DNA of 63,954 nt, filler included, from Octopus bimaculoides (lineage: Eukaryota), in assembly GCF_001194135.2 (NCBI RefSeq). It is 5 parts of 4 records of this genome, joined end to end, with 100 filler letters (N's around TTAATTAATTAA, not from the genome) between each part and the next. Parts side by side here need not be neighbours in the genome. Positions count along the whole stretch, not along the records: positions 1 to 14,676 come from NC_069004.1; positions 14,777 to 30,238 come from NC_068985.1; positions 30,339 to 55,852 come from NC_068985.1; 2 more parts are not named here. One strand, given 5' to 3'. Below are positions 5,066 through 48,170 of this stretch, piece after piece. The notes beneath the pieces are model-generated. The model ran no database searches, was not told the origin of the DNA, and saw only the letters and a program-made list of their open reading frames with translations. A program made the position numbers and the translations under genes. Numbering within the stretch: the first letter of the stretch is position 1; the number at the start of each line of letters is the position of its first letter.

Positions 5066-5081
5066 AACAACAACAACAACA

Positions 5082-5112
<31 letters not shown>

Positions 5113-5114
5113 TG

Positions 5115-5145
<31 letters not shown>

Positions 5146-5201
5146 TAATAATAATAATAATATAATAAATAATAAAAAATAATAATAATAAATAATAATA
5201 A

Positions 5202-12884: not shown

Positions 12885-13880
12885 CAGGCATACATACATA
12901 AATGCGATCGACAAACTTTTATTCCCTACAAACTGTGAGTTTTTAAAAAATCTTTTTTCACACATTCACTTTCTACCATATATAAACACACAGAATACAC
13001 ACTCATACATACATACATACATACATACGTACAAATACACCCATACATACAAATAAATAATATATACAAATACCTGTCCATCTTTTTCAAATATGATCCA
13101 CTCTTTATTAAAATACATTTACTTTTCCCTACAAACTGTGAGGTTTTTCAATACAAACTGAGTTTTTGGAAAATCTTTTTTCACACATTTACTTACTACC
13201 ATATATATACACACAGAATACACACTCATACATACATACGTACAAATACACACGCACATACAAATAAACACATACATACAAATATCTGTCAGTCTTTTCC
13301 AAATACGATCGACAGTCAAANNNNNNNNNNNNNNNNNNNNNNNNNNNNNNNNNNNNNNNNNNNNNNNNNNNNNNNNNNNNNNNNNNNNNNNNNNNNNNNN
13401 NNNNNNNNNNNNNNNNNNNNNNNNNNNNNNNNNNNNNNNNNNNNNNNNNNNNNNNNNNNNNNNNNNNNNNNNNNNNNNNNNNNNNNNNNNNNNNNNNNNN
13501 NNNNNNNNNNNNNNNNNNNNNNNNNNNNNNNNNNNNNNNNNNNNNNNNNNNNNNNNNNNNNNNNNNNNNNNNNNNNNNNNNNNNNNNNNNNNNNNNNNNN
13601 NNNNNNNNNNNNNNNNNNNNNNNNNNNNNNNNNNNNNNNNNNNNNNNNNNNNNNNNNNNNNNNNNNNNNNNNNNNNNNNNNNNNNNNNNNNNNNNNNNNN
13701 NNNNNNNNNNNNNNNNNNNNNNNNNNNNNNNNNNNNNNNNNNNNNNNNNNNNNNNNNNNNNNNNNNNNNNNNNNNNNNNNNNNNNNNNNNNNNNNNNNNN
13801 NNNNNNNNNNNNNNNNNNNNNNNNNNNNNNATACAAATACACACATACATAAATGCGATCGACAAACTTTTATTCCCTAC
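12885..13880. repeat. Degenerate tandem repeat with a unit of about 200-220 bp, spanning an N gap
   Basis: ccctacaaactgtgag..ttttttcacacatt..cacacagaatacacactcatac recurs at about 12925 and 13127; aaatgcgatcgacaaacttttattccctac occurs at 12900 and 13851. Confidence 0.8.
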
Positions 13881-14246
13881 TTCTCAAAACCAGAAAGTAG
13901 AAAGCTATTTCGAAGATTACAGATCCAATCCATCACTGGAACTATAAAAATCTGTAAAACTTTCAAGAAGCTTATCATTTAAATATATATGAGCATGTCT
14001 AGATATGTAACTATATGCTTGAGAATACATACATAAAACATACAAATCTGCACTACATACATACATACATACATACATACATACATACATACATACATAC
14101 AAACAAAAATACCCTGTCATTGATGTTGAAATTCAATCAAGGAACCTTGAATCTAGGTTAGAAAACGGTTCTTTCTCTATTGGTAAGAAATTTTGAAATA
14201 AAACTGAATTAATGACATACATACATACGTACATACATACATACAT
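13881..14246 (+). mobile_element. 5'-truncated RLE-type retrotransposon 3' end terminating in (ACAT)n
   Basis: FSKPESRKLFRRLQIQSITGTIKICKTFKKLII* (stop about 13983), then a 3' UTR with a stem-loop at 14141-14172 and the terminal (ACAT)n at 14215-14246. Confidence 0.75.
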
Positions 14247-14526
14247 ATATACATATGAATATATGATATTTGTAAACAAACCAGAAAGGCCTTGCAAGTT
14301 ACGGAGAAAAAGCTACTATGGAAGACTCATAGTATAATAACAACAAGAAGCCGTGTTACCGTTGATTTGTGGGTTCGATTCTGGCTGGGGTAGCTCGTCA
14401 GTTTTCGGCCATTTGTTTGTATTTTAAGAATTGTCGCTTCAAATCGGAGAATATATATTATTATGATATATTATCATACAGTTATATATATATATATATA
14501 TCTATATATATAAAAATGAGAATGTG

Positions 14527-14565
<39 letters not shown>

Positions 14566-14776
14566 ATGTCTGTCTGTCTGTCTGTCTGCCTGTCTGTCTG
14601 TCTGCCTGTCTGTATGTCTGTCTGTCTGTGTGAATCCCTAAAACTCGAGAACTACGCAACCAATTTCATTCAAATTNNNNNNNNNNNNNNNNNNNNNNNN
14701 NNNNNNNNNNNNNNNNNNNNTTAATTAATTAANNNNNNNNNNNNNNNNNNNNNNNNNNNNNNNNNNNNNNNNNNNN

Positions 14777-15007
14777 GGCACATAAAAGACACCATTTCGA
14801 GCGTGGCCGTTTTCGTGCGGGTGACACGTAAAAGCACCCACTACACTCTCTGAGTGGTTGGCGTTAGGAAGGGCATCCAGCTGTAGAAACTCTGCCAAAT
14901 CGGACTGGAGCCTGGTGTTGCCATCCGGTTTCACCAGTCCTCAGTCAAATCGTCCAACCCATGCTAGCATGGAAAGCGGACGTTAAACGATGATGATGAT
15001 GATGATA
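14777..15007 (+). mobile_element. Interspersed repeat family D (SINE/LINE tail ending in (ATG)n)
   Basis: ..ttaggaagggcatccagctgtagaaac..catgctagcatggaaagcggacgttaaacgatgatg; further copies at 17437-17646(+) and 17921-18200(-), and a diverged relative at about 15070-15290(-). Confidence 0.85.
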
Positions 15008-15329
15008 TATACATATATAAAAACAAAGACACATATGTATATTATATCATTGCCATTAGTATTTTGGCGTCTATGTTTCCATACTTGCATGGTTTGGATG
15101 GTATTTGTAAGGGTAGATTTTCTGCGGCTGGAAACCCTTCCTGTCACTGACACTCGCCTGTTTCCGAGTAAGGTAATATTTCTTCAATTCAAGACATGTT
15201 TCCATGGAAACTTGGAAATGAAGGACAACATTTATATGATGGTAACTGTCATTTACAGCTATCACATGATAGCAATATACATGTGTATATTGCTGTTTAG
15301 CAATGATCAGTCCTAATCCACAGATCTAT

Positions 15330-15910
15330 GGGTAGGAGTGTGATAATGCCATCTTTTTTTCAGACATAGTTCTATGTATTCCTCCTTAGTTTTGAAGATC
15401 CTAAGCTTGTTGGAGAATCCCTTGTTGACTTGTACTTAGTAATCACCTGACTGAATTTTGGTGAAGGAAGGAGTTTAACACTGCTGCCTTCTTTTGAGTG
15501 TCCTGCTTTGATATCGGTTCATCCGGGACCTTGGATAGCAGGATGTTCCTTGAAAACATCTGCCTCCACTCCATGAAGATCCTGCAGATGTTTTGGTTAG
15601 GCGTTAAATAGCTGTGGGCCCTTTAAATCCCAAGTTATTGAAGTACATGGTCCTCACTCTAGACGGGATAAATGGGACCTTTGGAATAGTGCAGTGACGT
15701 CCAGTTTGGGCGCTGATATAGCTCTCGATACCAAAGTTTGGTGCCAGCACCTCCATGATCTTCCATATATCACTGCATACCAGGGAGTAAATTTGTAGCT
15801 CTTTCAGTCTTTTTCAGTAGCTCAGTGGTTCCATTGATGCGATTTTCTTGATGTAGCACTGCTGAACTGCCTCAAGTTCTGCTATTAATTTGACACTGTC
15901 GAGTGACCAC
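15330..15910 (-). mobile_element. CR1-clade LINE ORF2 C-terminal fragment
   Basis: SVKLIAELEAVQQCYIKKIASMEPLSY*KRLKELQIYSL matches the CR1 LExVQRR..LSYEERL..L.SL pattern; homologous to 53690-54130. Confidence 0.8.
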
Positions 15911-15929
15911 AGTCGAGGGCAGTGTCCCA

Positions 15930-15969
15930 TATATGTCTAACATTTCTCATCTCTTTTGTTATTTTGCAG
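15930..15969 (+). promoter_or_regulatory. 3' splice site of the last ALG10 intron
   Basis: Branch-point-like CTAAC at about 15937, then pyrimidine tract ttctcatctcttttgttattttg and CAG. Confidence 0.8.
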
Positions 15970-17031
15970 AAAATGAGTTCCAGTTACACATTTTTGGTGG
16001 CATCGACATTGGGCAGCTTCCCAATGCTCTACTTCTTCACGTTTCTCTACTACACTGATGCTGGTTCCACTTTCTTCACACTTCTAATGTACCTCCTTCA
16101 TCTCCATCACCAAACTATACCTGCTGCCCTCATTGGTGTCATAGCCATCCTCTTCCGCCAGACGAACATCATCTGGGTTGTGTTTATGGTCGGTGTCTCT
16201 GCCCAGAACACTCTCCTTCAGTGGATGGCTGTGCAAAAGAAGAACTTGAAAACTCAGCGGAAGCACGACTGGTTGCTGCTACATACTTTCTTCAATCTAT
16301 TCTCTGTGAATCTTCAGCGGAATCCGTGGGTCATTGTAGAGCTTGTGCTCTCCATCCTGATGAAAACTTGGTGTTATATAATTGTTACTCTTCTATTCCT
16401 TCTGTTTGTCTACATCAACAATGGCATTGTTGTTGGTGACAGAAGTCACCATGAAGCCACGTTCAACTTCCCTCAAATTTATTACTTTCTATCGACTGTT
16501 TTATTTTTTGCGAGTCCACATTTGATATCATTTCAGAAAATCTACAACTGGCTCTCACAATCTATTCAGAAACCCATCAGCTTCATCACTTTCTCTGTCA
16601 TATCGGCATTGTTAATCGCTAAATTTACATATGTACACGAGTACCTCCTAGCAGACAATCGGCACTACACATTCTATGTATGGTCCAAAATCTTTAAAAG
16701 ACATTACCTCGTACGATTCTTACTAATTCCCATTTATTGGTACACTTTATGCCAAATTTACTTAGACTTGAAAAAGAAAAATATCTTTTGGAAAATAGCT
16801 TTTGCTGTTTGCATCACTGTCTCTTTGGTTCCACAGAAACTCTTGGAGTTTCGCTATTTCATAATTCCTTATTTATTGCTTCGGTTAAACATGCCCCTCC
16901 CCACACCCCTGAGTAAGATGCTGTTGGAATTTACCGTCACCACTTTTGTAAATGCAATCACTATTTATCTATTTGTCTACAAGACATTCACATGGCCTGG
17001 AGTAAAAGATGCACAACGTTTCATGTGGTAG
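15970..17031 (+). CDS. ALG10: Terminal coding exon of the ALG10/DIE2 alpha-1,2-glucosyltransferase (Dol-P-Glc:Glc2Man9GlcNAc2-PP-Dol), 5'-partial
   Basis: Uninterrupted 353-codon hydrophobic frame with ALG10 motifs LYFFTFLYYTD, FRQTNIIW, GIVVGDRSHH, YLLADNRHYTFYVW, PQKLLEFRYFIIPY and C-terminal QRFMW*. The ORF-track start (15922) lies in intron; the exon starts after the acceptor ttttgcAG at 15969 (phase 0). Stop TAG at 17029-17031. Confidence 0.95.
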   Translation, partial: KMSSSYTFLVASTLGSFPMLYFFTFLYYTDAGSTFFTLLMYLLHLHHQTIPAALIGVIAILFRQTNIIWVVFMVGVSAQNTLLQWMAVQKKNLKTQRKHDWLLLHTFFNLFSVNLQRNPWVIVELVLSILMKTWCYIIVTLLFLLFVYINNGIVVGDRSHHEATFNFPQIYYFLSTVLFFASPHLISFQKIYNWLSQSIQKPISFITFSVISALLIAKFTYVHEYLLADNRHYTFYVWSKIFKRHYLVRFLLIPIYWYTLCQIYLDLKKKNIFWKIAFAVCITVSLVPQKLLEFRYFIIPYLLLRLNMPLPTPLSKMLLEFTVTTFVNAITIYLFVYKTFTWPGVKDAQRFMW

Positions 17032-17053
17032 ATGCTGATGTATTTAAAAATTG

Positions 17054-17059
17054 AATAAA
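17054..17059 (+). promoter_or_regulatory. Candidate polyadenylation signal of ALG10
   Basis: AATAAA about 23 nt after the stop codon; usage unverified. Confidence 0.45.
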
Positions 17060-17436
17060 ACAAATACTGTCTGGTCCGTATATATATATATATATATATN
17101 NNNNNNNNNNNNNNNNNNNNNNNNNNNNNNNNNNNNNNNNNNNNNNNNNNNNNNNNNNNNNNNNNNNNNNNNNNNNNNNNNNNNNNNNNNNNNNNNNNNN
17201 NNNNNNNNNNNNNNNNNNNNNNNNNNNNNNNNNNNNNNNNNNNNNNNNNNNNNNNNNNNNNNNNNNNNNNNNNNNNNNNNNNNNNNNNNNNNNNNNNNNN
17301 NNNNNNNNNNNNNNNNNNNNNNNNNNNNNNNNNNNNNNNNNNNNNNNNNNNNNNNNNNNNNNNNNNNNNNNNNNNNNNNNNNNNNNNNNNNNNNNNNNNN
17401 NNNNNNNNNNNNNNNNNNNNNNNNNNNNNNNNNNNN

Positions 17437-17646
17437 GTGTGACTGGCCCTCGTGCTGGTGGCATGTAAAAGCACCCACTACACTCTCGGAGTGGTTGGCG
17501 TTAGGAAGGGCATCCAGCTGTAGAAACTCTGCCAGATCAGATTGGAGCCTGGTGCAGCCTTCTGGATTGCCAGTCCTCAGTCAAATTGTCCAACCCATGC
17601 TAGCATGGAAAACGGACGTTAAACGATGATGATGATGATGATGATG
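17437..17646 (+). mobile_element. Family D repeat, left member of an inverted pair
   Basis: Roughly 90% identical by eye to the reverse complement of 17921-18125. Confidence 0.9.
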
Positions 17647-17704
17647 CTGTTCATGTTGCTAACACTCACTGAAAATGTAAACAAACACATGCATGCACTC
17701 ATAA

Positions 17705-17757
<53 letters not shown>

Positions 17758-17920
17758 TACACACATACATGCATGTGCACATACTTACACATATGGCATA
17801 GGAAGGGCATCCAGTCATAGAAACTATACCAAAGCTGACAGTGGAACACAATGGCAAACCATCGAACACACACATTCTAGAAATGTACATGGACATTAAA
17901 TTATACTGATTTGATATATA

Positions 17921-18200
17921 TCATCATCATCATCGTTTAACGTCCGCTTTCCATGCTAGCATGGGTTGGATGATTTGACTGAGGACTGGTGAAACCAGAT
18001 GGCTACACTAGGCTCCAATCTGATTTAGCAGAGTTTCTACAGCTGGATGTCCTTCCTAACGCCAACCACTCCAAGAGTGTAGTGGGTGCTTTTACGTGCC
18101 ACCGGCACGAAGGCCAGTCATGCGGTACTGACAACGGCCACACTCAAAATGGTGTATTTTACATGCCACCTGCACAGGAGCCAGTTTGGCAGCACTGGCA
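17921..18200 (-). mobile_element. Family D repeat, right member of an inverted pair
   Basis: Starts with (CAT)n and cgtttaacgtccgctttccatgctagcatgggttgg on the plus strand. Confidence 0.9.
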
Positions 18201-18727
18201 ACAATCTCGCTCGGTTGCCAAAAACAGTCAGTGAAAATTCGAAAAATATTTTGCCTCAGCCTGGTTTGTCCTACGTTTTAAAGACGATCAAGTATGCTTT
18301 GAGGGAGATTTAGCTGGTATTTCTAACCGGTCAAGCCACAGTGTAGATTTTCATGTTTCATATTAGTAGAAAGAAAAGGTCTTAGTTACCTCCCAAGTTG
18401 ATGATAATAGTGATGATGATTATGATAATGATTGTTTCAAATTCTGGCTCGAGATCAGTAATTTTAGGGTACGGTGTAGGTCAATTACATCAACCCCTGT
18501 GTTCAACTGGTACTTTATTTTATTGAACCCGAAAAGATGAAAGGCAGAGTTGACCTCGGTGGAATTTGATCTCAGAATGTAAAGAACTGGAAGAAATACC
18601 ACAAAGCATTTTGTCCTGTGTGTTTATGATTCCAATAATGAGTTCTTTTATTCGCCACAAGGGTATGTGATGAAGGTGACATTACCAGAACAGTTCACAA
18701 AAATATAATGAAATAAATAATGATATA

Positions 18728-19107
18728 GGCGTAGGAGTGGCTGTGTGGTAAGTATCTTGCTTACCAACCATATGGTTCCAGGTTCATTCCCACTGCGTGG
18801 CACCTTGGGCAAGTGTCTTCTACTATAGCCTCGGCCGACCAAAGCCTTGTGAGTGGATTTGGTAAACGGAAACTAGAAGAAGCCTGTCGTATATATGTAT
18901 ATATATATATATATATGTGTATATGTTTGTGTGTCTGTGTTTGTCCCCCCAGCATCGCTTGACAACCGATGGTGGTGTGTTTTCGACCCTAGAACTTAGC
19001 GGTTCGGCAAAGGAGACCGATAGAATAAGTACTAGGCTTACAAAAAATAAGTCCTGGGGTCGACTAAATGGCGGTGCTCCAGCATGGCCGCAGTCAAATG
19101 ACTGAAA
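18728..19107 (+). mobile_element. tRNA-headed SINE, family B (GGCGTAGGAGTGGCTGTGTGGTAAG..., tail GAAACAAGTAAAAGAG)
   Basis: Near full-length copy. Others at 27171-27579(-), 33983-34384(-), 34540-34930(-), 41890-42312(-), 44110-44522(-), 48185-48603(-), 60590-60820(-); partial copies at 20560-20755(+) and 31600-31760(+). Confidence 0.9.
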
Positions 19108-19195
19108 CAAGTAAAAAAGTAAAGTAAATTCGGCAAATAACTTAAGAGCAGGATCATAAAAATATCAGAAGTATAATCATATAGAATAATTTACC

Positions 19196-19289
19196 AAAAT
19201 ATTTTCGTCGCTTTGAGACCGCGATCTGTGCTGCACCACGGAATTTTGTCAGTGAACAGGTCGCGGTTTCAAAACGACGAAAATATTTT
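19196..19289. repeat. Foldback: 34-bp inverted arms around a 26-bp spacer
   Basis: aaaatattttcgtcgctttgagaccgcgatctgt versus acaggtcgcggtttcaaaacgacgaaaatatttt, 3 transition mismatches. Confidence 0.85.
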
Positions 19290-19516
19290 AACACAAATTA
19301 AATTTAAATGTTGAAGTGAATGTAACGGTTTTTGTGTGTTTTTAAATGGCTTATAAAAACCTTCCACGCTGCAATTGTTTTTGTTTCAGCAAACGATCTC
19401 AGATCAGGTCACTTGCTATGCAAGTACATCTCCGTAAATCATATAGAAGTAATATCGTTACAGAAATCGACATATGTCTGTAATTGCAACCGAGATAATC
19501 TTTAGTCCATCATTAA

Positions 19517-19672
19517 TCTTTTGAACCTGCGAGTTTACAGCCGAAATATAACGATATTTCTGCTATTTAGCAAACCGTAAGCACAAAACCATTTGGTCAT
19601 CCTCTTCTGCATCTTCCATAAATAATTCAAACGAAATCGCCCCCGTTTAAGCGTACTCGCAGGTTGAAAGGA
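19517..19672. mobile_element. MITE with TTAA target-site duplication (piggyBac-like)
   Basis: TTAA|tcttttgaacctgcgagt ... actcgcaggttgaaagga|TTAA; 18-bp TIR with 2 mismatches. Confidence 0.75.
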
Positions 19673-20106
19673 TTAATGGCTGAACGATAAATGTAATAAA
19701 ATGGATGGTTTATCTTAGAAAACAACTGTGAATAACGCAAAACGGATTATATATGAGAAGCTGTAATGATTGGTTGCATATCTATGTAACGTAAGAAGGA
19801 AGCAATAAGCTAGTCGATGTAACATACAATATACTAGGTAACAATAGGTGAGGATATGTATGTGAGCAAAAGGGGAAGGGAAATTTATGTGTAACTATAA
19901 GTATTTGTTTTATATTAGTTCAAGCATTTGCAGTGTTAATTAGAAACGTTATATTTGCCTCAGAACACATTTCAAATTACCCATACATGCTGTTTAGTGC
20001 AATAATAATTATCACATACGCAGAGTAACGCAGGCTGCATCAGGTCTGTTAGAATCCAGTACTTATCGAACCGTTCTCCCCTTTATCAACAAACATGTAT
20101 TTGTCG

Positions 20107-20147
<41 letters not shown>

Positions 20148-20764
20148 CACATGTAAATCAAAAATGAAGACGAAAACAAAAGTCAAATGGATGTACACAG
20201 GAAATGCATTTGGTTGACGCTCAGTTTAAGATGGAAAGAAGAAGGAGTGTGACGTTTCGAGTATGACGTTTCGTCAGAAAGAGGAAAAGTCTGGAGAGAA
20301 GGAAAAGACTAGTCAATCGTCCGATGAAGGCAGGTGTGTCATTACATGCTTACAGTGACCATGCATTCAGGATGAGGGTTGACGCTTCCCATTTATTCCA
20401 ACACAAATGACACGCTGTTAATCTCGTAAGTGTCCAAAGTGTCTGCCCTCAAGATGATCATATTTCTGGAGTCTGCAAGCCATACCACGACCAGAAACTT
20501 ACAGGAATGCAGAGGTTCTGATTGATGTTGATTTCCTGCCGGGCCTCTATAATGAACCCGTCCAACAGCCGCTTGACAACGGCTGCTGGTGTGTTTACGT
20601 CCCCGTAACTTAGTTTTATAGCAAACGAGACAGAATAAGTGCCAAGTTTTTTTTGTTTTAAGTACTGGAGGGTCAATTCATATTCATTCGACTAAAAATA
20701 CTTCAAGCTGGTGCTCCAGCATGAATGCAGTCTTTTGACTGAAGAGAGTAAAAGATGACTTTTC

Positions 20765-21090
20765 TTTTTTTTCTTTGTCCCCTGACGAAGAATTGAATCC
20801 GAAACGTTAAACATTCCACTCTTCACGGCAAGTTCACTGTACTACTAGATTATTGCCTGATTATTATACCCAACCACTAAATTCTGCGAACTGCCTTTCT
20901 CACTAAGCCTACACTTAAACGTCTCAACTCACAGTTGCACCACATTTTAAAGACTTTTCTTCTTTCTTTTTCCCTCTCTGCTGACTGCTAAACTGTGACT
21001 TTTTTCTCTTTTTCTCTGCCTCCTGACGAAGGATTGAATCCGAAACGTTGGATGTTCCACTCCTCACGGCAAGTTCACTGTACCCACTTC
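20765..21090 (+). mobile_element. Penelope-like remnant with two direct repeats (pLTR-like), each with a hammerhead-like core
   Basis: CTGACGA..GAAACGTT at 20782 and 21023, both followed by ttccactc.tcacggcaagttcactgtac; spacing about 240 bp. Confidence 0.65.
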
Positions 21091-21799
21091 ACTTTTTTCT
21101 ATAAAAGACTGGCCGTCCTTGTCTGCTAGCGATACATGTCTACGCTCTAAGTACCATACGTCTGTAAGAGTGGATCTCTCAAGGCGAACCTCAATATTCG
21201 GCGTTCTAATACTACCTCGTTTAGTTGGATATAAAGATTGTCATTTTGTATTGATACTGCTTTCGTTGTTAATATTTATCTTTCAATAAGCTTGCTGGCC
21301 ATTTGCAACATCAGTGACTAAAATGCGGATCTTATCTGCTGGCGATGTATATCTATGCTCTTAGCAGCGTACGTCCATATGAGAGGATGTTTCAAGGCGA
21401 ATGCTGCAGTTAACGGCATTCTGATAATTCATCCGCGTTTAACAGGGTATAACGATTGCTACACACACACACACACACATATGTATGTATGTACGTGTGT
21501 GTGAGTGTATGCACGAATATTATATATATATATATATGTGTGTGTGTGTACGTGTATGTGTACATATGTATGTGTGTGTGTCTGTTTATTTCGTAGACTT
21601 AACGATTATCATCGTCGTAGCTATTATTGAATTTGTCTTCTGTGCCAAGTCATTCTGAGTTTTAGCTATTGAAAAATTATATCAACTACTGTCTTGTCAC
21701 AACTAACATAGTTTTGTGTATATTGATTACAGTTACAAAAGTGGATCGAGAAAAGCATACAAGGGCCTCCCTACTCGAATCTTTAAAACACAATGATAA

Positions 21800-22075
21800 A
21801 ATGGCGACGAAGATGTTAGAAAACCTCCTTAAGCTGAATAATCAAGCGGGAGCCATGACATGGTTTGTTCAATAATTTTGAATGATGTAAAAGAGGTAAA
21901 AAGAAACACCTATTTTTGTCCTCACTTAGTGCTGAGGCGTTTTTGATTCTCAAAGACAAGCTTTTCCATGCAAATATTGAACATGCCAGATCCGTTCAGA
22001 TAAAACGGCATGAGAAAATCTTGTTAAATTCACTGAAAGATTAATAATAGCTGATAATGTGAAATTGCTGGAAAG
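21800..22075 (+). mobile_element. Gypsy-like LTR retrotransposon PBS and gag N-terminal remnant
   Basis: PBS-like TGGCGACGA at 21802 immediately before an ATG; degenerate FLSSLSAEAFLILKD motif. Confidence 0.5.
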
Positions 22076-22630
22076 CAAGTTACATAATTAGTTAACTTTA
22101 TTTTAAGAATAAATTGAGAAGCAGCAGTTTGTAAATTGAATTAATTGAAAGAAACTTTCTAATAAGAGATAATTAAAACTGAGTTTCATATCAGGATTGC
22201 GTTGTTGTTGTTGTTGTTGGTGGTGGTGATGGTGAAAACATAAAAATGATGTTTGATTCTCTTTGCAAATCATCTAGATTTAGGATATGGGGAATTATCT
22301 TTATTAGCCACGACCATGGACACTGAAGCGGTATAATTTAATTTCCAATTTTGGCACAAGACCAGCAATTTCAGGGAAGAGTTTTAGTCGCTCAACTGCT
22401 GCTTATTTTATCAAAACCCCGTAAAGAGATGAAACGCAAAGTCTATCTCGGCGGAGTTTGAACTCAGAATGTAAAGACGGACGAAATGCTGCCAAGCATT
22501 TTTTCCGGCGTGCTAACGATTCAACCGGTTCGCTGTCTTAGAAGCGGTATATATCGTTTTGAATTTTTGGCACATAATCAGAAATTTCAAGGGAGGAGGT
22601 AAAACGATAACATCGACTCAGTGCTGAACT

Positions 22631-23288
22631 GGGATCTTGTTCAAAACGGGGGCACCAGTATTTTCTTAACGAAACACTTTGAAACTTGGGACACTGGTAG
22701 AATGTGTCATATAAAACATCTTTTTCTCTTAGTCTTCTTAACAAAAAAACGTACATCGCAAGTTATTTCATATTAAAGTTGTCGTATTTCTGTAATTTCA
22801 ACCAATGACTGACGTCCATTCAGCCGAATTTAACTTAAGTGCTGATTACGTAAACAAACGATTCTGGCGGTGATAAAATTATTATTTCCTTGTCAAAAAA
22901 TGGCTGAAGCATAGGCAGTAGCTAATACTTTCATACAGTTCAGGCAGATGTTAACGAAATAAACACGCGTCAAAGAAAATGAAAAAAGCAAATGTTGTAC
23001 ACATACAGTTCAGGCAGATGTTAACGAAATTATAAATGGAGATTAAATACGCTTTACACCGCTTAAACTGCCAAAGGAGTAAGTGTAAACAGCTGAATAC
23101 TTGTCAGTGATTGGTTGAAATTATCGAAATAAGACAATTTTTTACATGAAATAAATTCGAATACAAACATTTTTTTCTGTTCTATAACACAAAATAGATA
23201 AGTATAGGAAGTTTGAAAGTCTTTCGGTACCAAAAACACTACATAAAACATTAATGAAAACTGGTGCCCCCGTTTTGAAGAAGATCCC
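22631..23288. mobile_element. 658-bp non-autonomous TIR element inserted into a family A SINE, with 6-bp TSD TGAACT
   Basis: TIR gggatctt(g/c)ttcaaaacgggggcaccagt (29 bp, 1 mismatch); TGAACT at 22625-22630 and 23289-23294; removing the element restores the SINE sequence gtgctgaactggtatttatttt. Confidence 0.9.
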
Positions 23289-23416
23289 TGAACTGGTATT
23301 TATTTTATGAACCCCTAAAAAGATGGAAAACAAAGTCGATCTTGGCGGGATTTGAACTCAGAATGTAAAATCGAACGAAATACTACAAAGCATTTTGCCG
23401 TCTTTAAAGTCATATA

Positions 23417-23667
23417 CACTAATCCCTCAACTATCGCGGATGTTATGTTCCCAAAACTTACGCGATAGGTGAAAATCCGCGAAGTAGAGACAGTACTGTA
23501 CTGTATATTTGTTTTAATTATTCTTATAATTTGTATATATTTATTTTATTATAAATGCAAAACAATACCATAAAGGAATCGACGTAAGCTTAAATAATAA
23601 ACCGCGATAGGTGATCCGCGATAGGTGATCCGTGATAGGTGATCCGCGATATGGCGAAGGATTACTG
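23417..23667. mobile_element. Tigger/pogo-like MITE
   Basis: TA|cactaatccctc ... gaaggattactg; homologous to 38823-39050; internal tandem copies of the 14-mer ccgcgataggtgat. Confidence 0.75.
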
Positions 23668-37314: not shown

Positions 37315-38822
37315 CGATATAACATACCAAATGATGAAAGACGTCCCTGCTGTGATGGTTTTATACTTTAAAAGTTCGTCGGATTGCATTACCTAATAAT
37401 CCGCCCACTCAAATGATAATAGCTACTTTTACTCGCCTTTTGTAAACAAACCAACGAAGGTACTTCTATTAAATCACACAATCAGCTAGAAATAACAGCT
37501 AAATCTTACACGTATCGCTTTCAGAAAAGGAAGGATACTTTCGATATTACACTACAATTTCGTAGATAAAACAAAAAACAGCTGGAGTGTGTTTGAACAG
37601 AGATATCCTCGATCAGCACTGCCTTTGCACATTTTCATATAAGATTGCTTGATAGTGCTTCCATCTTTGGATTCAGGTAATATTTAAAGATGTTCTAAGA
37701 TGGGGTAGAGCGAGATTTGAAGACGTTTAGGCTGTAAGTTCAAGCAAATCGAGCAACTAGGTAAGATCTCTCCTGTTGGCTCATTTTCGGAAGCTCTTTC
37801 TGGCTGGTAATAATTGAATGATTATGAAAAGTCGTTTCTGACAATCCTACTGGTAAATATTTTTGATTCAGTAGAGACCCTACAGGAACAGAAATACAGA
37901 TGATCGAACTTTAAGGAGAATGACAACACACACGTTCTATTTCCACGAATTGTTGACCCTTCGAAATTATGTCGTACGAATGACAACACGCCTGGTAACA
38001 AGATTTAACAAGTCTAGGCTCCGCTTTATCCACGAATGTGGGATTAGGTTATATTCTTTTCTATAATATTGTGTAACATTTTTTTGTCTTTGGTCAGTAA
38101 CTGTTATTTCCAATTTTCTTCTATCTAGAAATCAAAAAAAAGTTACTATTATTCCCTTCAAACTTTGCTTGGCCATCAATTACATTTCAGACAGATTCAG
38201 CGCTGAGTTGCTGAAACAGAAATATCGAAATAAATATTCTGCGCAACACCGCAGATTTCTTGGTCAATTGCTTGATCTTAACTACTTGAACATGTCCCTT
38301 AGTGGCTGACGATATATACATCTCTGATCATGAACAGGAGTAGCGGGGGAGCATCATAGCCTTGTCTTGAGAGGTTTGAATAAATGTAACAGAAGTAAAG
38401 TTTGAAGGTAATATTAGCTATCTAGGGATGAACGAATGGGACAAATATTGTTTTACACAGTGTAGTCGATCCATGCGAAGCATAAGTTTGACATTCACAT
38501 TCTGCAATTCCTCAAAACTATCTTGTCTATCCTTAAATAGTCTTTCCTCCCTTTAATCATTTTGTTCATCGACTGTTAGGTATTTCTCTCATTGAAGTTT
38601 GTATAATTTTCGTGTAATATCCTGTCAGGAGTTCCCACATACGACGTAGACATGTTGCTAGGCGGTAACTGGTTAGTTACGGTAGATGCTTTCTCGTAAT
38701 TCTCTGATGAATTGTTGTCGGCCGCCTAGCTTTGGTCTGTAGCTTCTTGTATGTCTTGGTAGAGCTCTGTATTCCATCAATTTCTTAGTAAGTGTGCCAT
38801 TTTCCGTTCCTGATGCACAAAA

Positions 38823-39050
38823 CAGTAATCCCTCGACTATCGTGGATGGTACATTCCAAAACCCCCCGTGATAGGTGAGAATCCGCGAAGTCGAAACAGT
38901 ACTGTACTGTATGTATTTGGGGGGGGGGGGTAATATTTTTATAACTTGTAATTATTTTATTATAAATGCAAAACAACACTACAGAGGAATCTACGTAAGT
39001 TTAAATAATAAACCGCAATAGGTGAACCACGATATGGTGAGGGATCACTG
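38823..39050. mobile_element. Tigger/pogo-like MITE
   Basis: cagtaatccctcg ... gagggatcactg|TA; same family as 23417-23667. Confidence 0.75.
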
Positions 39051-39828
39051 TACTTGGATTGCTAGCTGGATTGCATTTAAATATCCCCATATCATTCGAA
39101 ATGTTCAACATCCTTTTCCGCAATCCTTTTTGCCTTGGATCATTTCTTAAGATTCCCTTGTTATCTTGTTAATTTCTTTTCCCAATTCCTTTTCCACATA
39201 GTAATAACAGGATAACCACTGGACCTGTGCTACAAAGCACGAAACCTTCACCAGACACTTCCGCCTTATTCACACCATTGTTGTTGTTGTTTTAATTTAA
39301 GTTTAACAATACACTTATATGATGATATTAACTTTAGGACTACACCACCACCGCTGTTTTAATCGAGACTCCATAGCAGTAAGGCTTACTAGTTATTGCT
39401 AAAGAGGCCCTCCTCCTCTTGGCAGAGAATGTGTCCCTCCTGTGCTTTCATTGAAAATACTACATCTCCTCGTAAACAAGTTGTGGACATTACACAAAAT
39501 GTACTTCATCATTCAGGTTATATTACACTGGTTGTCGCACCAATTCTTTATTCCTCGTAAATCCTATGCGTTCACGACTATGATCCTGTTATATTGACAC
39601 TAGACTACCATCGGTAATTTTAAACCTGGCAGTAAACTGACATATTACATTGATCCAGTTTGGATGACCGTTGGCTTTTATGAGTTAACCCGTCTTTTGG
39701 CGGGTTTTCTATTTCTTCTTTCCATTGAGTTCCCCACATGAAAGAAATAGAAATCAGCCTTCTCAAGTAGGCTCAGTGCGATTGCTGAGCTCACACGCCC
39801 TCGGGTTGTGTCGGCTTGCACAATTTTT

Positions 39829-39871
<43 letters not shown>

Positions 39872-40229
39872 NNNNNNNNNNNNNNNNNNNNNNNNNNNNN
39901 NNNNNNNNNNNNNNNNNNNNNNNNNNNNNNNNNNNNNNNNNNNNNNNNNNNNNNNNNNNNNNNNNNNNNNNNNNNNNNNNNNNNNNNNNNNNNNNNNNNN
40001 NNNNNNNNNNNNNNNNNNNNNNNNNNNNNNNNNNNNNNNNNNNNNNNNNNNNNNNNNNNNNNNNNGTTCTTTGCTTTCATGTTTACATAAAAGAGCTTTT
40101 TCAACTTATAACCAGGATTTAAGAACAAGTTAAAAGAACGGAAAAGTTAAAAAGAGAAGAATTATATCAAGTTTACTTATTTTTTAAGTTCTATTCCAGA
40201 AAAGTCAAATGAAAGAAACTATTATCATT

Positions 40230-40610
40230 ATTATTATTACAAGTTTCACTTGAAAAGGAAGTTGAGGGTGGAGAGGGAAGTGTTACCTTGTAGCAAGTTT
40301 GTTGAAAGGTGAATGTTGGAAGAATGGCCAGTGTGAAAGGACCAGTTCTGAGCATACACCTGTAAAGAAAAGGAGAAGGGTTCTTGCCCTGTTGTTCAGG
40401 CACCCGTGTTTTTTGTGGGTTTTTCCACGAGGAACTTAAAGCGCATCCCCTATTGAAAGTTTTTAATTTGTTCAATTTTTATTGTTATTTCATTGTGTAC
40501 ACGCGAAAACCCATTGTATTGTCCTGCTTTTGTCTTTAATTTTGTTATATGTCTTTTAATGTTTTATATATGAGCCCTTGTGGCCAATATAGGAATAGAT
40601 TATTATTAAT
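40230..40610 (+). mobile_element. Tx1-like LINE 3' end (ORF2 C-terminus plus 3' UTR)
   Basis: KFHLKRKLRVEREVLPCSKFVER, then a T-rich UTR ending gagcccttgtggccaatataggaat. Confidence 0.55.
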
Positions 40611-41143
40611 ATACATATATAAACATATTTGAGGTTGTAAAGATGGACAAAATGCCGCTAAGCATTTTGCCTGATGTGCTAACGATTCTGCTGGCTCGTT
40701 GCCTTGGAAATATTATATAATAATACAAGTATGTATTCTGGGGTTGAACTCAAAGAGATTCCCAAAAATCGTTTATCCACTTATGTTGTTGACAAGTAAT
40801 GCTTCTCAAAACAACTGCGTAAAATAAAGATTTCTTTGCACATGTAAGTATGCATTACCTGAAGCAACACATGAAGACTAAATGGTTTGAAATGTTGTGT
40901 GTACATGTACATATGCGTGCGCGTGGCGTATGTGTGTGTGTACCTATATACATACACATCTTTCTCTTCTCTCTCTCTCTCTAAAATATATCCCTCAGTC
41001 CAATCGAGCTCTGAGCTGACAATGGTGTTTTAACATCTAAACGTCTTAAGCGACAATTCTTTTTCGCCAAGACAAACTGCAGTGAAAAACCTTTTACGGA
41101 TTCAAATATCTCTTAAACATATTTGAAGTGGTCTTGAGAGTAG

Positions 41144-41185
<42 letters not shown>

Positions 41186-41301
41186 ATCTGCGTGTAGATA
41201 TTTCTTTACGCCCACAAGGTACGACATACAGGTGTAGAAATCATTGCTATAAACATTTGGTTTTGTCTCGTAAGAAATTATTATTGTTATTATAATTATT
41301 A

Positions 41302-41432
41302 TTGAGTGAGAGAGCAGTGCATGCCATCAAAGTGAAACTGGGGTAAAATATATGAAGCCCATTATACCCATCATGACTACCCTTCTGATAAGGGTACATC
41401 AGGCACATGCATCACAACCATATGTGCGCGAC
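41302..41432 (-). mobile_element. 5'-truncated copy of the 5202-5778 element inside a (TTA)n/(TTG)n array
   Basis: Reverse complement of about 5631-5760; TTA repeats immediately on both sides. Confidence 0.85.
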
Positions 41433-41489
41433 TTATTATTATTATTATTATTATTGTTGTTGTTGTTGTTGTTGTTATTAATATTATTA

Positions 41490-41529
<40 letters not shown>

Positions 41530-41533
41530 TATT

Positions 41534-41572
<39 letters not shown>

Positions 41573-43233
41573 ATTAATATTATTATCATTATTATTATTA
41601 TTATTGTTGTTATTATTATTATTATTATTGTTGTTATTATTACTATTATCGTTTGGTTTTTCTTCTTTTTATTTTGTCAGAAACTTGTAAAATGTGTTTC
41701 CTTTCACAAGGTATGACGGTTCCGTCTTCGGGAAAGGTGACAAAGGGACACTGTGACATTCATATTGTCCCACCCTGCGGACCATCTTCACTCATTTGTT
41801 AATTTACATTTTGATTAACGGACTTTTAGGAAAAAATAAATTTTATAAAATTAATGAGAGACAATTTAATTAATTTTTTTTAATCTTTTATTGGTTTTAG
41901 TCGTTGGACTGCGCCCTTGCTAGAGCACCGCCTTGAAGAGTTTAGCAGAACAAATCAACCCTAGGACTAGTTGTTTTAAAACCTAGTACTTATTTTGTCG
42001 GTCTTTTTGCTAAACCGCTAAGTTACGGAGACGTAAACACACCAACACCGGTTGTCATACGGTGGCGGGGAACAAATACAGACACATATAGATACACACA
42101 CACACATACGCACACATTATATATATCTGTGTGTGTGTGTGTTTGTGTGTGTATGATGGGGTTTTTTCAGTTTCCGTCTACCGAATCCACTCACAAGTCT
42201 TTGGGTTCCCTGGGGTTATAGCAAAAGGCACTTACCCAAGTTTCTACACTTTGGAAGTGAACCCAGAACCATGTGGTTGGGAAGCAAGTTTCTTACCACA
42301 CAGCTACGCCTATTGAATAAAATTAATCACAATTTTTTTCATGAGAATCGTTAATTAATTGGATGCTTGCTTGAAAAGATTCTCAAGAAAATGGGCAACA
42401 ATAATCCAGATTACTGATTTTGCTTTCCTCTTTTTCCTTTTTTTTTTCCTATAATTTTTATTGCAGAGAGGAGAAGATTCATGAAAGTGCTTGATGGAAG
42501 TATCTCATTCAAATATTGGCTTACCTCAAGCAAGGTATTGATTCACAGCTAACTAGACGTAGAAATGTGTTACATATGCAGGACATTGTTACTTTTTAAA
42601 AAGACATTTTTTCATTTTAGTTGTTTGATTAATAACTAGCAGACACATTAACAGCGACAATAGTGACAACTACAACCACCTGAGTCGCAAACTAGACATT
42701 AACAATAAAATCAATGCAGTTTTTAAAAAAAAAGCTGCATAATGTTGCAACGACATTCTACTGTGAATTGGCCGGAAGAGAAAAGAGAGAGAGAAAGAGA
42801 GAGAGTCTTAGGTAGCGTTGAGTCTTCTCTCCAATATGATAGCAAGCGATGAAACGAGAGTATATACCACTACGGTTACACGGTTCTAGAGTTTGACTAT
42901 GTTGTGATGAGAAACTGTAATTGAAGGTTTGAGACAAGTGGAGGATTTTGCAAAGAAAAAAAAGAAGACGAATGNNNNNNNNNNNNNNNNNNNNNNNNNN
43001 NNNNNNNNNNNNNNNNNNNNNNNNNNNNNNNNNNNNNNNNNNNNNNNNNNNNNNNNNNNNNNNNNNNNNNNNNNNNNNNNNNNNNNNNNNNNNNNNNNNN
43101 NNNNNNNNNNNNNNNNNNNNNNNNNNNNNNNNNNNNNNNNNNNNNNNNNNNNNNNNNNNNNNNNNNNNNNNNNNNNNNNNNNNNNNNNNNNNNNNNNNNN
43201 NNNNNNNNNNNNNNNNNNNNNNNNNNNNNNNNN

Positions 43234-43274
<41 letters not shown>

Positions 43275-44739
43275 AAGAAATTGAAGGTTTATAGTAGTGA
43301 AGCAAAAGTCTTTTAAAATTATCGATAATCCTTTCTACTAGAGGCTCAAGGCCTCGAATTTGCGGAGAGGGAATTAGTTGATTACATCGACGCCAGTCTT
43401 TCCCTAATACTTAATTCATCGACCTCGAAAGGATGAAAGGCAAAGTAGACCTTTGATCCCAGAACGTGAGACAGACGAAATACAGCTAAGCATTTCACCC
43501 GGAGTGCTCACCATTATGCCAGCTCGCTGTCTTGACTTTTAGAATTATCAATAATAGATACAACAGCAATTACTATAAACTATCGTTTATATCAGTATAT
43601 ATCGATCGAGTAATGTGAAACTGGTAGATGTCGAGGATTAAAAATATAGAAATGAAATTCTGATGAGGAAGAATCATATCAAAAGTATTTTCTACGTAAT
43701 TGTTAGTGTAGAATATACCTACTGCAGTCATTTGATACCGTTGCTGTGTATCCTAAAGTGTATTCCGCTTCAAAAAACACCATGGAGTGTTTTGAAGACG
43801 ATAGTCGCAAGAACTGTAAACAGAAAGATCCGGATTTCATACACACACACATACAAAATGGCGATATTAACTATTGAACAATTTCTGAAAACCTCTCATT
43901 TTTATATCGCAAAATTTTCTGGATACTTCACTCTTATGTCAAACAACTCCTAAGTCTTAACCTCACGCTTCATCGTTTCCCTGGATTTCATCGATAGTTG
44001 GGTTTTAGACAGACGTGGTATACGTGTTATTTCTGTTTCTAAGTTCAAAGTTCACATTTACCTTACCCTATTCTTAGAATTTCTCAACCGTATTTTTAAA
44101 ATACGCGTACTCTTTACTCTTTACTCTTTACACTTTTACTTGTTTCAGTCATTTGACTGTGGACATGCTGGAGCACCGCCTTCAGTCGAGAAAATCGACC
44201 CCAGGACTTATTCTTTGTAAGCCTAGTACTTATTCTATCGGACACTTTTTGCGAACCGCTAAGTTACGGTGACGTAAATACACCAGCATCGGTTGTCAAG
44301 CGAAGTTGGGGGGACAAACACAGACACACACACACATATGTATATATACATATACATATATACGACGGGCTTCTTTCAGTTTCCATCTACCAAATCCACT
44401 CACAAGGCTTTGGTCGGCTCGAGGCTATACTAGAAGACACTTGCCCAAGGTGCCACGCAGTGGGACTGAACCGGGAACCATGTGGTTGGTAAGCAAGCTA
44501 CTTACCACACAGCCACTCCTGCACCTATACTCTTGGTTTTCTTATTCTTCCTTATTCTTTCCGCCTTTTATGCTAAATTTTTGTATACATTCATCATTTT
44601 CAGTCGTTTTAACTGACTTGAGAAACTCCTACTGAACAAAACAAACCTTACGTTTGTCAACAAAATACCAATAAATTTAATTTATTACAAACTAATACTA
44701 GAATATTTTATCTGTTGATAGTTTGCTGTCTCTATAAGT

Positions 44740-45119
44740 GGCACTCCGTCGGTTACGACGATGAGGGTTCCAGTTGATCCGATCAACAGAACAGCCTGCT
44801 CGTGAAATTAACGTGCAAGTGGCTGAGCACTCCACAGACACGTGTACCCTTAATGTAGTTCTCGGGGAGATTCGGTGTGACCCAGAGTGTGACGAAGCTG
44901 GCCCTTTGAAATACAGGTACAAGAGAAACAAGAAGAAAGTGTGAGAGAAAACTGTGGTGAAAGAGTACAGCAAGGTTCGCCACCACCTCCTGCCGGAGCT
45001 TTGTGGAGCTTTAGGTGTTTTCGCTCAATAAACACTCAGAACGCCCGGTCTGGGAATCGAAACTGCGATCCTACGACCGCGAGTCCGCTGCCCTAACCAC
45101 TGGGCCATTGCGCCTCCAC
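44740..45119 (-). mobile_element. tRNA-headed SINE, family C
   Basis: Highly similar to 36944-37314. Confidence 0.9.
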
Positions 45120-45399
45120 GCTGTCTCTGTGCTACTATGGAATAATCACATCTTAATATTATGTTCCCCTGTATCGAGCCCCTTATGATCCACATTGGAA
45201 AAATGCTGAAATAACTAATCGATATTTCTACCAAGAACATTAATATTCCTTGAAGGAAACACAACACAAAATACTTTATAGCCATTTCATTAAAAGACTA
45301 ATATGGTATGTATTAGTCTTCAATAAACAATTTGATGACAAAAATAATAACTTTAAATACGGCTTCAACTTTAATAAATGCCCACTTATATCCTCATCC

Positions 45400-45620
45400 A
45401 TCCTTTTCAAGACGAACTTTTCCGTTAATAAAGAATATTAAATTTAGAAAGCAAAACAATAGATTGCGATAAATTTAAAAGCAAAATTACAAGAAGCAGA
45501 AAATTCTAACAAGTTCTTCGTACAATTGAATAAAACATAAAATTCTCTATAAAAGATACTTATTGAGTTCTATAACCAACACTTATAAGAAAACTAATTG
45601 AATATTTTAAAAGATATTAA
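45400..45620 (+). mobile_element. Penelope-like RT N-terminal remnant
   Basis: Frameshifted LIKNIKFRKQNN..SNKFFVQLNKT*N resembles the PLE LI.NI.FR..N..K.FV.ADKT.NLY pattern. Confidence 0.45.
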
Positions 45621-47326
45621 TATCTACAGCCAAAAATCATTTCTTTTCTTGAAATTGCCAATGGAACCCAACCGCTCTCACCTCAACACCCTTGAGAAAT
45701 ATTTCAGTTTAGCCGTTCTCGTGGACGAGATATAATATTAAGAGAGATATAATATNNNNNNNNNNNNNNNNNNNNNNNNNNNNNNNNNNNNNNNNNNNNN
45801 NNNNNNNNNNNNNNNNNNNNNNNNNNNNNNNNNNNNNNNNNNNNNNNNNNNNNNNNNNNNNNNNNNNNNNNNNNNNNNNNNNNNNNNNNNNNNNNNNNNN
45901 NNNNNNNNNNNNNNNNNNNNNNNNNNNNNNNNNNNNNNNNNNNNNNNNNNNNNNNNNNNNNNNNNNNNNNNNNNNNNNNNNNNNNNNNNNNNNNNNNNNN
46001 NNNNNNNNNNNNNNNNNNNNNNNNNNNNNNNNNNNNNNNNNNNNNNNNNNNNNNNNNNNNNNNNNNNNNNNNNNNNNNNNNNNNNNNNNNNNNNNNNNNN
46101 NNNNNNNNNNNNNNNNNNNNNNNNNNNNNNTTGTCACTGAAATCATATCAATGACTTGGTCACTGATATGATTTCGCTTCATCAAACATAAATGATTCAG
46201 AAATAGAAATTATTTTATTTTCTTGTTCATGAATAATTGTAATTAACTATCGTTACTAGTAACAAATTTATCTGAAACACAAAAAAAATTCAATTTAATT
46301 AGAGAATAATTAGAGAATAATGGATTCAGAGAAATAAATTAGGTCTTCGATCATATTATCCAAATCTCTTAAATTATCAAATTTATTATCCAATTCTTCT
46401 AAATTGAAATTGAATTATATTGGGACGACAGTCACTCATTTTTTGGCTCCATTATCCTTGAGATCGGTCTCTCTTACTCTCGTCTGTTGGTGCGCAGTTA
46501 CTGCGGCACATTACAGCAGCACATTTATTGTCCATTGTTGAGAGTTTAAATTTGAGCTACTTGTCCTCTCGCAATTTCGTCAGTCGCTGATAACATCAGA
46601 TCGGCGGGGTTTTTTTTCCCCTTATATAAATAGTGAAGTCTTGCTTGAACTTCGATGAAAGCTGCTTTTTTAGTATTTTATATTCCTCGCTTGTTTTAGA
46701 GGAATCATAAGTGGTTGCAGCATGACATGTTTGAGTCGTGTTTCTTGTCGTTCAGTCTCTCCGCAGAAAAAGGTTACTGTGTCGATGATACGAGTATTAC
46801 CTTGTGTGCATTTTGGCCGAGTGATCCAGTTTGCTAAGGTGACATATTTCTTTCCAAAAAGTGCAGCTTACTGGCGTGATTGTTTTGCTGAAAAATTTGA
46901 GCAAGTTGAGTATTTCGTATCTCAATATTTTTTATGCATCTTCATTTTGCCTATCGGGGTGGGGACTTCCTTAGCCTTTCTGTAGAATTGGTATTAGTCT
47001 TGGTTCAGTTCAAAAGTCCATTGGAATTTTTCTCTATAGTTCCGCAGTTTGCTATAGCTGACTCCGGGTTCTATCGTCGCCATGTTGTATGTAGAATAAT
47101 TTTTACTCGTGGTTTATATTTCACTCTTTGATTACTGCTACGAATTTTTCAAAAAAAGTTGTTTCTTTGCATTTACTCAAAGAAAATAACAATTTCTTTT
47201 ACCAGGCTTGTATTAATGGCAAAAATTATATACGAAAGTATTCATTATCTGGGGGATTGAATAGTCCTCTATGCCAACGTGTATTCGACGCCACGGTGAT
47301 GTATGTATGTATGTATGTATGTATGT

Positions 47327-47796
47327 CTCTTCTATTTTTTTATTATTTTAAATCTTCCACTGGGGAGGGAGCCGGTTTCCAACAAAGAAACAAGGCTCCA
47401 TGATTGGGGTGTAGTTAAAATAGACAAATTCACATTTGGAACTTGAGAAAAGTCTTGCATATTTTTACTGTTCCACTCACAGATTGCACTTGTAATGTAC
47501 GAATCAACCGGTCGATTTCTCTTTCTGAAAATACCAGTTTAGGCAGATTCTCCTTTAAGCATTTACTAACAAAACCTAAAACCCCAATTATTATTGGTAT
47601 GAATATGAATTCATAGTCTGGATATAGAAGATGGGGGTTTCGAAGCAGTTGTCCATAGGTATCCTCTTTTTCTTTGATTTTCAAATAGATATTTATATCA
47701 GCAGGGCAGCTGACCTCTGTGATGGTACATAGCTTTGCTCCTCTGTCCCAAACAACAATATCCAGCCTGTTGCGCTTACATTTGACAGACGTTTTG
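47327..47796 (-). mobile_element. 5'-truncated RLE-type retrotransposon with (ACAT)n on both sides
   Basis: RNRLDIVVWDRGAKLCTITEVSCPADINIYLKIKEKE..IPIIIGVLG..LQVQSVSGTVKICKTFLKFQM* (stop at 47430), 3' UTR to 47327; TATG arrays at 47299-47326 and from 47797. Confidence 0.85.
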
Positions 47797-48170
47797 ATGT
47801 ATGTATGTATGTATGTATGTATGTATGCATGCATGTATGTATGTATATATGTATGTATGTATGCATTCATGTATGTATGTATATATGTATGCATGTATGT
47901 ATGTATGTATGCATGCATGTATGTATGTATGTATGTATGTATGTATGTATGCATGTATGTATGTATATATGTATGCATACATGTATGTATGCATGCATGC
48001 ATGTATGTATGTATGTATGTATGCATGTATGTATGTATATATGTATGTATGTATATATGTATGCATACATATATGTATGCATGTATGCATGTATGTATGT
48101 ATGTATGCATGTATATATGTATGCATTCATGTATGTATGTATATATGTATGCATGTATGTATGTATGCAT
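47797..48170. repeat. Long compound (TATG)n/(CATG) microsatellite
   Basis: Direct inspection; source of several spurious MYV/HTY ORFs. Confidence 0.95.

Follow-up and report, generated by a model that had tools for sequence, protein, structure and literature searches.

This work concerns a lineage of retrotransposons with a restriction-like endonuclease (RLE) in Octopus bimaculoides, and its relation to arrays of the tetranucleotide ACAT. The window, by which we mean the whole 63,954-nucleotide (nt) stretch analysed, joins five parts of four records of assembly GCF_001194135.2. It holds two 5'-truncated pieces, one on the plus strand near 14 kb and one on the minus strand near 47 kb. An earlier note on this DNA proposed both as members of one candidate RLE retrotransposon family that inserts into (ACAT)n; the pieces and their translations are as it described. 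They lie on separate contigs (C24 and C5) and belong to two families of the lineage, A and B (Table 1).

The 14-kb piece consists of the last 34 codons, encoding the C-terminus LQIQSITGTIKICKTF (13880-13982, +), a 232-nt 3' untranslated region (UTR) and an ACAT array. It matches the family-A majority sequence at 96% over 13880-14052 and at 90% over 14105-14214. We considered whether it might be two separate elements and rejected this, because the ACAT array inside its UTR is a family trait that recurs in A copies across the genome. The 47-kb piece has an open frame of 121 amino acids, LQVQSVSGTVKICKTF (47433-47795, -), with R-L-D in place of its family's R-P-D. Both pieces run into (ACAT)n shortly after a common UTR motif, at 43 nt (14 kb) and 41 nt (47 kb), close to the 45 nt first estimated. 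The 47-kb copy does have the tetranucleotide on both sides (47797-48167 and 47299-47326), and its 3' array leads directly into the intact 5' end of a family D copy. We linked that 5' end to the D 3' end through a copy at G000 C8:97.70 Mb (L364/L399). At the 5' junction ACAT is found in the 47-kb copy alone; the 14-kb copy adjoins another repeat there. The adjoining repeat is a low-complexity unit with short ACAT runs, duplicated in the window (12900-13320 and 13845-13879) and flanking an N gap.

Table 1. Features of the ACAT-ending lineage in the window
Feature	Position	Strand	Remarks
Family A copy, 5'-truncated: last codons of the open reading frame (C-terminal helix after the RLE domain) and stop	13880-13982	+	by translation
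3' UTR of the A copy, which contains the internal (ACAT)n array (14053-14104)	13983-14214	+	array recurs in the genome's family-A copies
Two-stem 3'-UTR hairpin, 38 nt, family A variant with A-U pair	14138-14175	+	
(ACAT)n array, 3' junction of the A copy	14215-14255	+	
Family D copy, 5'-intact, 3'-broken: 5' UTR, start codon (47083) and decayed Myb-like domain at the N-terminus	46451-47298	-	
(ACAT)7 array between B 3' end and D 5' end	47299-47326	-	
Family B 3' UTR, 102 nt, with 38-nt hairpin at 47365-47402	47328-47429	-	
Family B copy, 5'-truncated: RLE domain to stop	47430-47795	-	93% to family-B majority sequence
Degenerate (ACAT)n array, 5' junction of the B copy	47797-48167	-	

The lineage and its families

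The RLE identity proposed for these pieces stands, and the idea of a single family does not. The lineage has at least five families in this genome, A, B, D, E and Y, all of which end in (ACAT)n and which are 54-85% identical in the RLE region. A search of the genome with the 47-kb peptide gave 34,644 first-look candidates, a figure that is not a copy number, and 150 of them were scored. Majority sequences built from long copies give near-full, near-continuous open reading frames (ORFs) for A and B. The single ORF runs from an N-terminal domain with the pattern W...N.DL..CY through a reverse transcriptase (RT) and a CCHC knuckle to the RLE. The RT matches Pfam RVT_1 (E 7.7e-10) and is homologous to solved R2 proteins (E 2e-9), and the motifs CRLC..H....C (the CCHC knuckle) and RPD..E/D..P..EK (the RLE) could be aligned. 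Pfam matched no family to the 121-residue RLE peptide of the 47-kb copy. The N-terminal domain, represented by B, D and 8 database proteins, is related to a group of Dong-like N-termini that includes a Bombyx protein (HHalign 96.5%, E 8e-10). In Dong this domain has been termed Myb/SANT-like (PMC7998251; here and below, papers are cited for the accessible parts of their text). By domain anatomy the lineage is of the R4/Dong type. The family-A majority sequence, from full-length copies, also carries a (GTA)n run within its N-terminal coding region.

Quick RT trees place A, B and Y in one clade (SH-aLRT 98-99), within a long branch (SH-aLRT 96-99) of mostly unlabelled database proteins. That branch is sister to a group with a Bombyx RT protein and the TAA-ending families of the same octopus genome. 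These trees have SH-aLRT support only and a midpoint root; they lack D and E, and hold no sequence labelled Dong, R4, NeSL, HERO or R2. RT identity to the Bombyx protein is 35-38% for the ACAT lineage versus 44-51% for the TAA families. Among close proteins a single one is named, from Argonauta, and a metagenome scan for relatives with flanks gave 255 pattern matches, of which 0 were confirmed. There are further, older RLE elements in the octopus genome: one is related to B and also ends in ACAT (L185), one is a long branch of its own (L100), one has a TAA end (L103), and L187 is listed with these three.

The TAA-type Dong elements of this genome provide a comparison. Their copies end in AAT in 25 of 30 cases, in ATG in 2, in no such repeat in 3 and in ACAT in 0. 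The canonical TAA-tailed families form an RT clade separate from the ACAT lineage; the TAA-tailed loci were tied to that clade by overlaps such as those of L301 and L305 with L266. At least 4 distinct TAA-tailed Dong-type families with differing 3' UTRs occur among loci L261-L290, and one of them has, by eye, a hairpin of similar layout to the one we discuss below. The window itself contains an internally deleted canonical Dong-type copy (3476-4952, +; array 5081-5201). It ends in (AAT)n, so both target types are present in the window.

Family Y is the young member of the lineage. There are 558 exact copies of its terminal 33 nt and at least 33 copies with like scores over 222 nt, and 30 copies compared with one reference copy show 27 differences in 10,145 nt. 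Y was recently amplified. Its long copies fall in assembly gaps. Public sequencing runs labelled as four other organisms yield contigs at least 99% alike to parts of the stretch around one Y locus (L420).

ACAT as a target rather than a tail

We called a junction positive when at least 11 of 12 positions match (ACAT)n within 30 nt of it. Chains shorter than 50 nt and junctions with N were excluded from the counts, as were 27 A fragments beginning at the internal array; family labels are automatic, and some fragments of other families and internally deleted copies are included. ACAT follows 61 of 89 3' ends in A, 79 of 111 in B and 10 of 10 in Y. The earlier note had allowed that most copies might prove to lack ACAT at the 5' junction. 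Among older copies 166 of 291 carry it there on the same strand (A 66/119, B 89/153, Y 11/19). On the opposite strand the counts are 0, 2 and 0, and the background is 37 in 3000 flank windows. For 139 of the 166 positive junctions no member of the clade ends within 300 nt upstream, so these 5' arrays are not the tails of neighbours. Copies of D with intact 5' ends agree: 16 of 26 have ACAT upstream on the same strand and 0 of 26 on the other.

In a set of 30 near-identical Y copies, 6 are hidden by N gaps, and the 5' junctions of all 24 assessable ones carry ACAT. A sample of the first 30 Y copies by position has 10 hidden by gaps; read by eye, 18 of the 20 assessable adjoin an ACAT array and 2 sit in degenerate arrays. 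Together with the genome-wide junctions and the split arrays described next, these copies bear out the targeting of ACAT/TACA microsatellites that was first proposed from two copies.

At 3 of 60 loci Y has split the ACAT array within the family A UTR, and A resumes downstream, so that A's array stands as a paralogous empty site. One B copy and one A copy split this array likewise, and at 7 more Y loci another clade member starts just past the 3' array. The repeat units themselves are also informative. Immediately past the last bases of Y, 4 of 56 copies have a mutated first unit and about 3 of 54 a mutated second unit; set against the 27 differences in 10,145 nt within the element, the first-unit changes fit target DNA better than a templated tail. 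Most 3' junctions read from the element's end directly into ACAT. At the 5' side microhomology averages 1.14 nt against 0.39 expected (n=14). In the TAA-type loci that served as background, perfect ACAT runs of at least 12 nt make up just 0.056% of each strand. The repeat is thus on both sides of the copies in a fixed orientation, and ACAT acts as their target, not as a tail that the element makes.

Several observations weigh against this, and it is important to state them together. The test fails at 125 of the 291 older 5' junctions; many of these probably reflect later decay, deletions, or fragments that belong to other families and were mislabelled. The automatic count for the position-ordered Y sample is only 10 of 21, which is low because boundaries overshot into the array. 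No target-site duplication can be resolved within perfect repeats, and at one locus examined by eye (L413) an interruption that opens the 3' flank has no counterpart on the 5' side. Public runs at Y locus L420 showed no orthologous empty site. The filled 5' junction is present there in all four runs labelled with the genome's own species. In two of four runs from other organisms the single-copy 5'-flank contig stops 31 and 37 letters into the repeat and does not enter the element, a weak hint of an empty array that we do not count as evidence.

Other repeats are found beside such arrays. At L079, L073, L005 and other loci, repeats resembling short interspersed nuclear elements often start next to ACAT arrays, apparently in both orientations.

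A probable hairpin in the 3' UTR and a proposed mechanism of insertion

In R2 elements the structure of the 3'-UTR RNA is recognised in priming. All five families share a 38-nt motif 35-60 nt before the element end, which comprises an outer stem, a UU bulge and an inner stem of 6 bp, together with a loop of 5 nt that includes GU and one C that is bulged. The outer stems reported earlier, GGAACC/GGTTCT (14141-14172) and GGAGCC/GGCTCC (47399-47368), do fold in this way. The A-T/G-C swap between them is real, but it is a polymorphism within family A, and better covariation is found in the inner stem. There one column pair is U-A, A-U or G-C depending on the family and another is U-A, A-U or C-G; in D and E, 12 of 12 inner pairs are preserved in different letters. 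At the outer pair of the swap, B, Y and D have G-C and E has A-U; A is mixed, its 88 copies including G-C 26, G-U 18, A-U 29 and A-C 8 (Fisher p = 7.7e-4). Family-consensus pairs are canonical in 49 of 55 cases against a shuffled mean of 42.0 (p = 4e-5), and slid partners give 9-30. The 10 'Y' rows behind these pair tallies and consensus counts still include L037, L042 and L096, which were first labelled Y and are probably A-type. They were left out of an alignment of 37 natural copies (5 of Y and, from each other family, the first 8 without gaps), whose covariation score is 0.358 versus 0.199 (0/500 shuffles).

Could the motif be merely inherited sequence, with no selected RNA structure? The families are related and only five were sampled, and the motif was located by a pattern that fixes its conserved letters. 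Two covariation measures robust to relatedness are not above shuffles (471 and 493 of 500; 37 copies). RNAalifold on the same 37 decayed genomic copies finds 3 pairs only, a 3-bp apical stem. One inner pair is mismatched in A, B and Y, the outer stem is down to 3 bp in E, and single copies fold weakly (z-scores of the UTRs are +0.99 at 14 kb and -1.87 at 47 kb). All of this counts against a structure. However, D and E were found by their ORF and 3' sequence rather than by the fold and yet keep every inner pair, the outer pair covaries within family A, and slid structures score far lower. We consider mere inheritance unlikely and believe the hairpin is probably a real structure. The covariation claimed for it earlier is suggestive, and the relatedness-robust measures keep us from calling it established.

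That ACAT is targeted by one route or another, protein or RNA-DNA pairing, seems to us nearly certain. What does the targeting is a narrower question. In the R2 model of RLE elements the 3' UTR is bound by the protein, which cuts the bottom strand and primes reverse transcription from the nick. Our preferred reading, to which we give a probability of about 0.85 on sequence evidence, is that copies sit in pre-existing (ACAT)n in one orientation, and that the likely cause is recognition and nicking of the repeat by the element's protein. The protein would bind its own RNA through the conserved 3'-UTR hairpin, and the Myb-like domain and nuclease would read the repeat. The ATGT strand would be nicked in register, at the step between one ACAT and the next, and reverse transcription would be primed with little or no pairing between RNA and target. 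The 5' end, usually truncated (heavy 5' truncation is typical of copies), would then be joined, through 0-3 nt of microhomology, to the array's upstream half. Family A's internal array would multiply the targets. Since the 3' arrays and A's UTR array are also targets, the families pile up in tandem and nested trains.

Two other explanations have to be weighed against recognition by the protein. Insertion might have no preference, with an (ACAT)n tail that is templated or slipped and copies that merely pile up in microsatellite-rich regions. The genome is indeed rich in microsatellites, and about 4 in 10 older 5' junctions lack ACAT. We nevertheless hold this to be very improbable, given the strand asymmetry of 166 to 2, the complete agreement of the near-identical young copies, the many 5' arrays that are no upstream copy's tail, the arrays inside family A that Y splits, and the scarcity of perfect ACAT runs in the background loci. 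The more serious alternative is that the ACAU ends of transcripts reading through from a donor locus anneal to nicked ATGT, and the endonuclease is only loosely specific; copies would then truly insert into ACAT arrays, with the repeat left unread by the protein. All five families end in ACAT as this would have it, and two pairs of Y copies share a first-unit variant, ACGT twice and ATAT twice, as from one donor. But the two ATAT copies are of different Y sub-variants, and the first and second units are mutated at similar rates, as expected of target DNA. The lineage also retains the Myb-like N-terminal domain, which has been proposed to act in Dong targeting (PMC7998251). We think RNA-DNA pairing a poor candidate for the main route.

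Known relatives and significance

Described Dong elements (R4 clade; Bombyx mori, Anopheles gambiae, Biomphalaria glabrata, Darwinula stevensoni) are the closest comparison. They share with the octopus lineage the single ORF, the RT and the C-terminal CCHC and RLE; both have an N-terminal Myb-like domain and no N-terminal zinc finger (A and B show no C2H2 pattern in their first 1.5 kb), and both insert in a microsatellite. The target differs, as described Dong elements use (TAA)n (PMC3812793, PMC7998251) and this lineage, on its separate RT branch, uses (ACAT)n. Its junctions are (ACAT)n, so we regard it as Dong-like in its working and not as a TAA-Dong.

Microsatellite targets are not peculiar to Dong. 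Waldo (R1 clade; WaldoAg1, WaldoAg2, WaldoFs1) targets ACAY microsatellites, ACAT included (PMC3812793). Waldo has an APE endonuclease, however, and the ACAT lineage has a C-terminal RLE and a Dong-like N-terminus; a shared ACAY/ACAT target would thus be convergent. Togen, which is related to NeSL, and some HERO families are also RLE elements on microsatellites, in other clades and on other repeats, with Togen on (TG)n (PMC4640811). R2 is an RLE element with a homologous RT, and it differs in its N-terminal zinc fingers and 28S rDNA target.

The label Dong-R4 already occurs in octopus genome annotations, with five recently active families in O. vulgaris (PMC9115989, PMC8967140, PMC13282606), and our lineage falls under the same superfamily label. 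In their accessible parts these papers give no target sequence, no split between TAA and ACAT and no UTR structure. The first part of the supplement PDF of PMC9115989 lists no Dong sequence, and the accessible text of PMC13708176 has nothing on Dong. The ACAT families may be present, unlabelled, in published octopus repeat libraries. We found no report of an ACAT-specific R4/Dong element in the literature; Repbase, Dfam and most subscription papers were outside the search.

An ACAT-targeting lineage of the R4/Dong type, with a young family, beside TAA-targeting ones is a real feature of this genome. To our knowledge few target changes are known within the R4/Dong group. They are also few in R2 (PMC5035012). 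Here two lineages with different microsatellite targets, TAA and ACAT, occupy one genome, and one ACAT family is young enough for direct experiment on whether the Myb-like domain, the nuclease or RNA pairing governs the target choice of RLE elements. More tentatively, and with the odds somewhat against it as a whole, we suggest that an undescribed deep R4 branch switched from TAA to ACAT and is still active in octopods. Family A's UTR array might plant landing pads for itself and its sister families and help build ACAT microsatellites, with the hairpin as the protein's RNA handle. The lineage likely gives a compact 3'-UTR RNA element for a clade in which we found none described, and it suggests that the APE-type Waldo and this lineage converged on ACAY repeats. 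Claims of Dong activity in octopus are affected as well, since callers that need unique flanks likely miss insertions in microsatellites.

The 5' end offers a last comparison. The Bombyx Dong has a ribozyme like that of hepatitis delta virus (HDV) at its 5' end (PMC3774820). We detected none in the ACAT lineage: Rfam returned only microsatellite noise on 7 loci with intact 5' ends, and a crude descriptor found no match in three 5' ends, though decayed copies and a strict descriptor can miss one. There is a second conserved hairpin in the 5' UTR, seen in the window at 47232-47275 (-) and at the 5' ends of full-length A, B and D. It runs from a purine-rich arm through a C, a 9-bp stem-loop and a 3-nt bulge to the matching arm, and its stem letters differ in each family.

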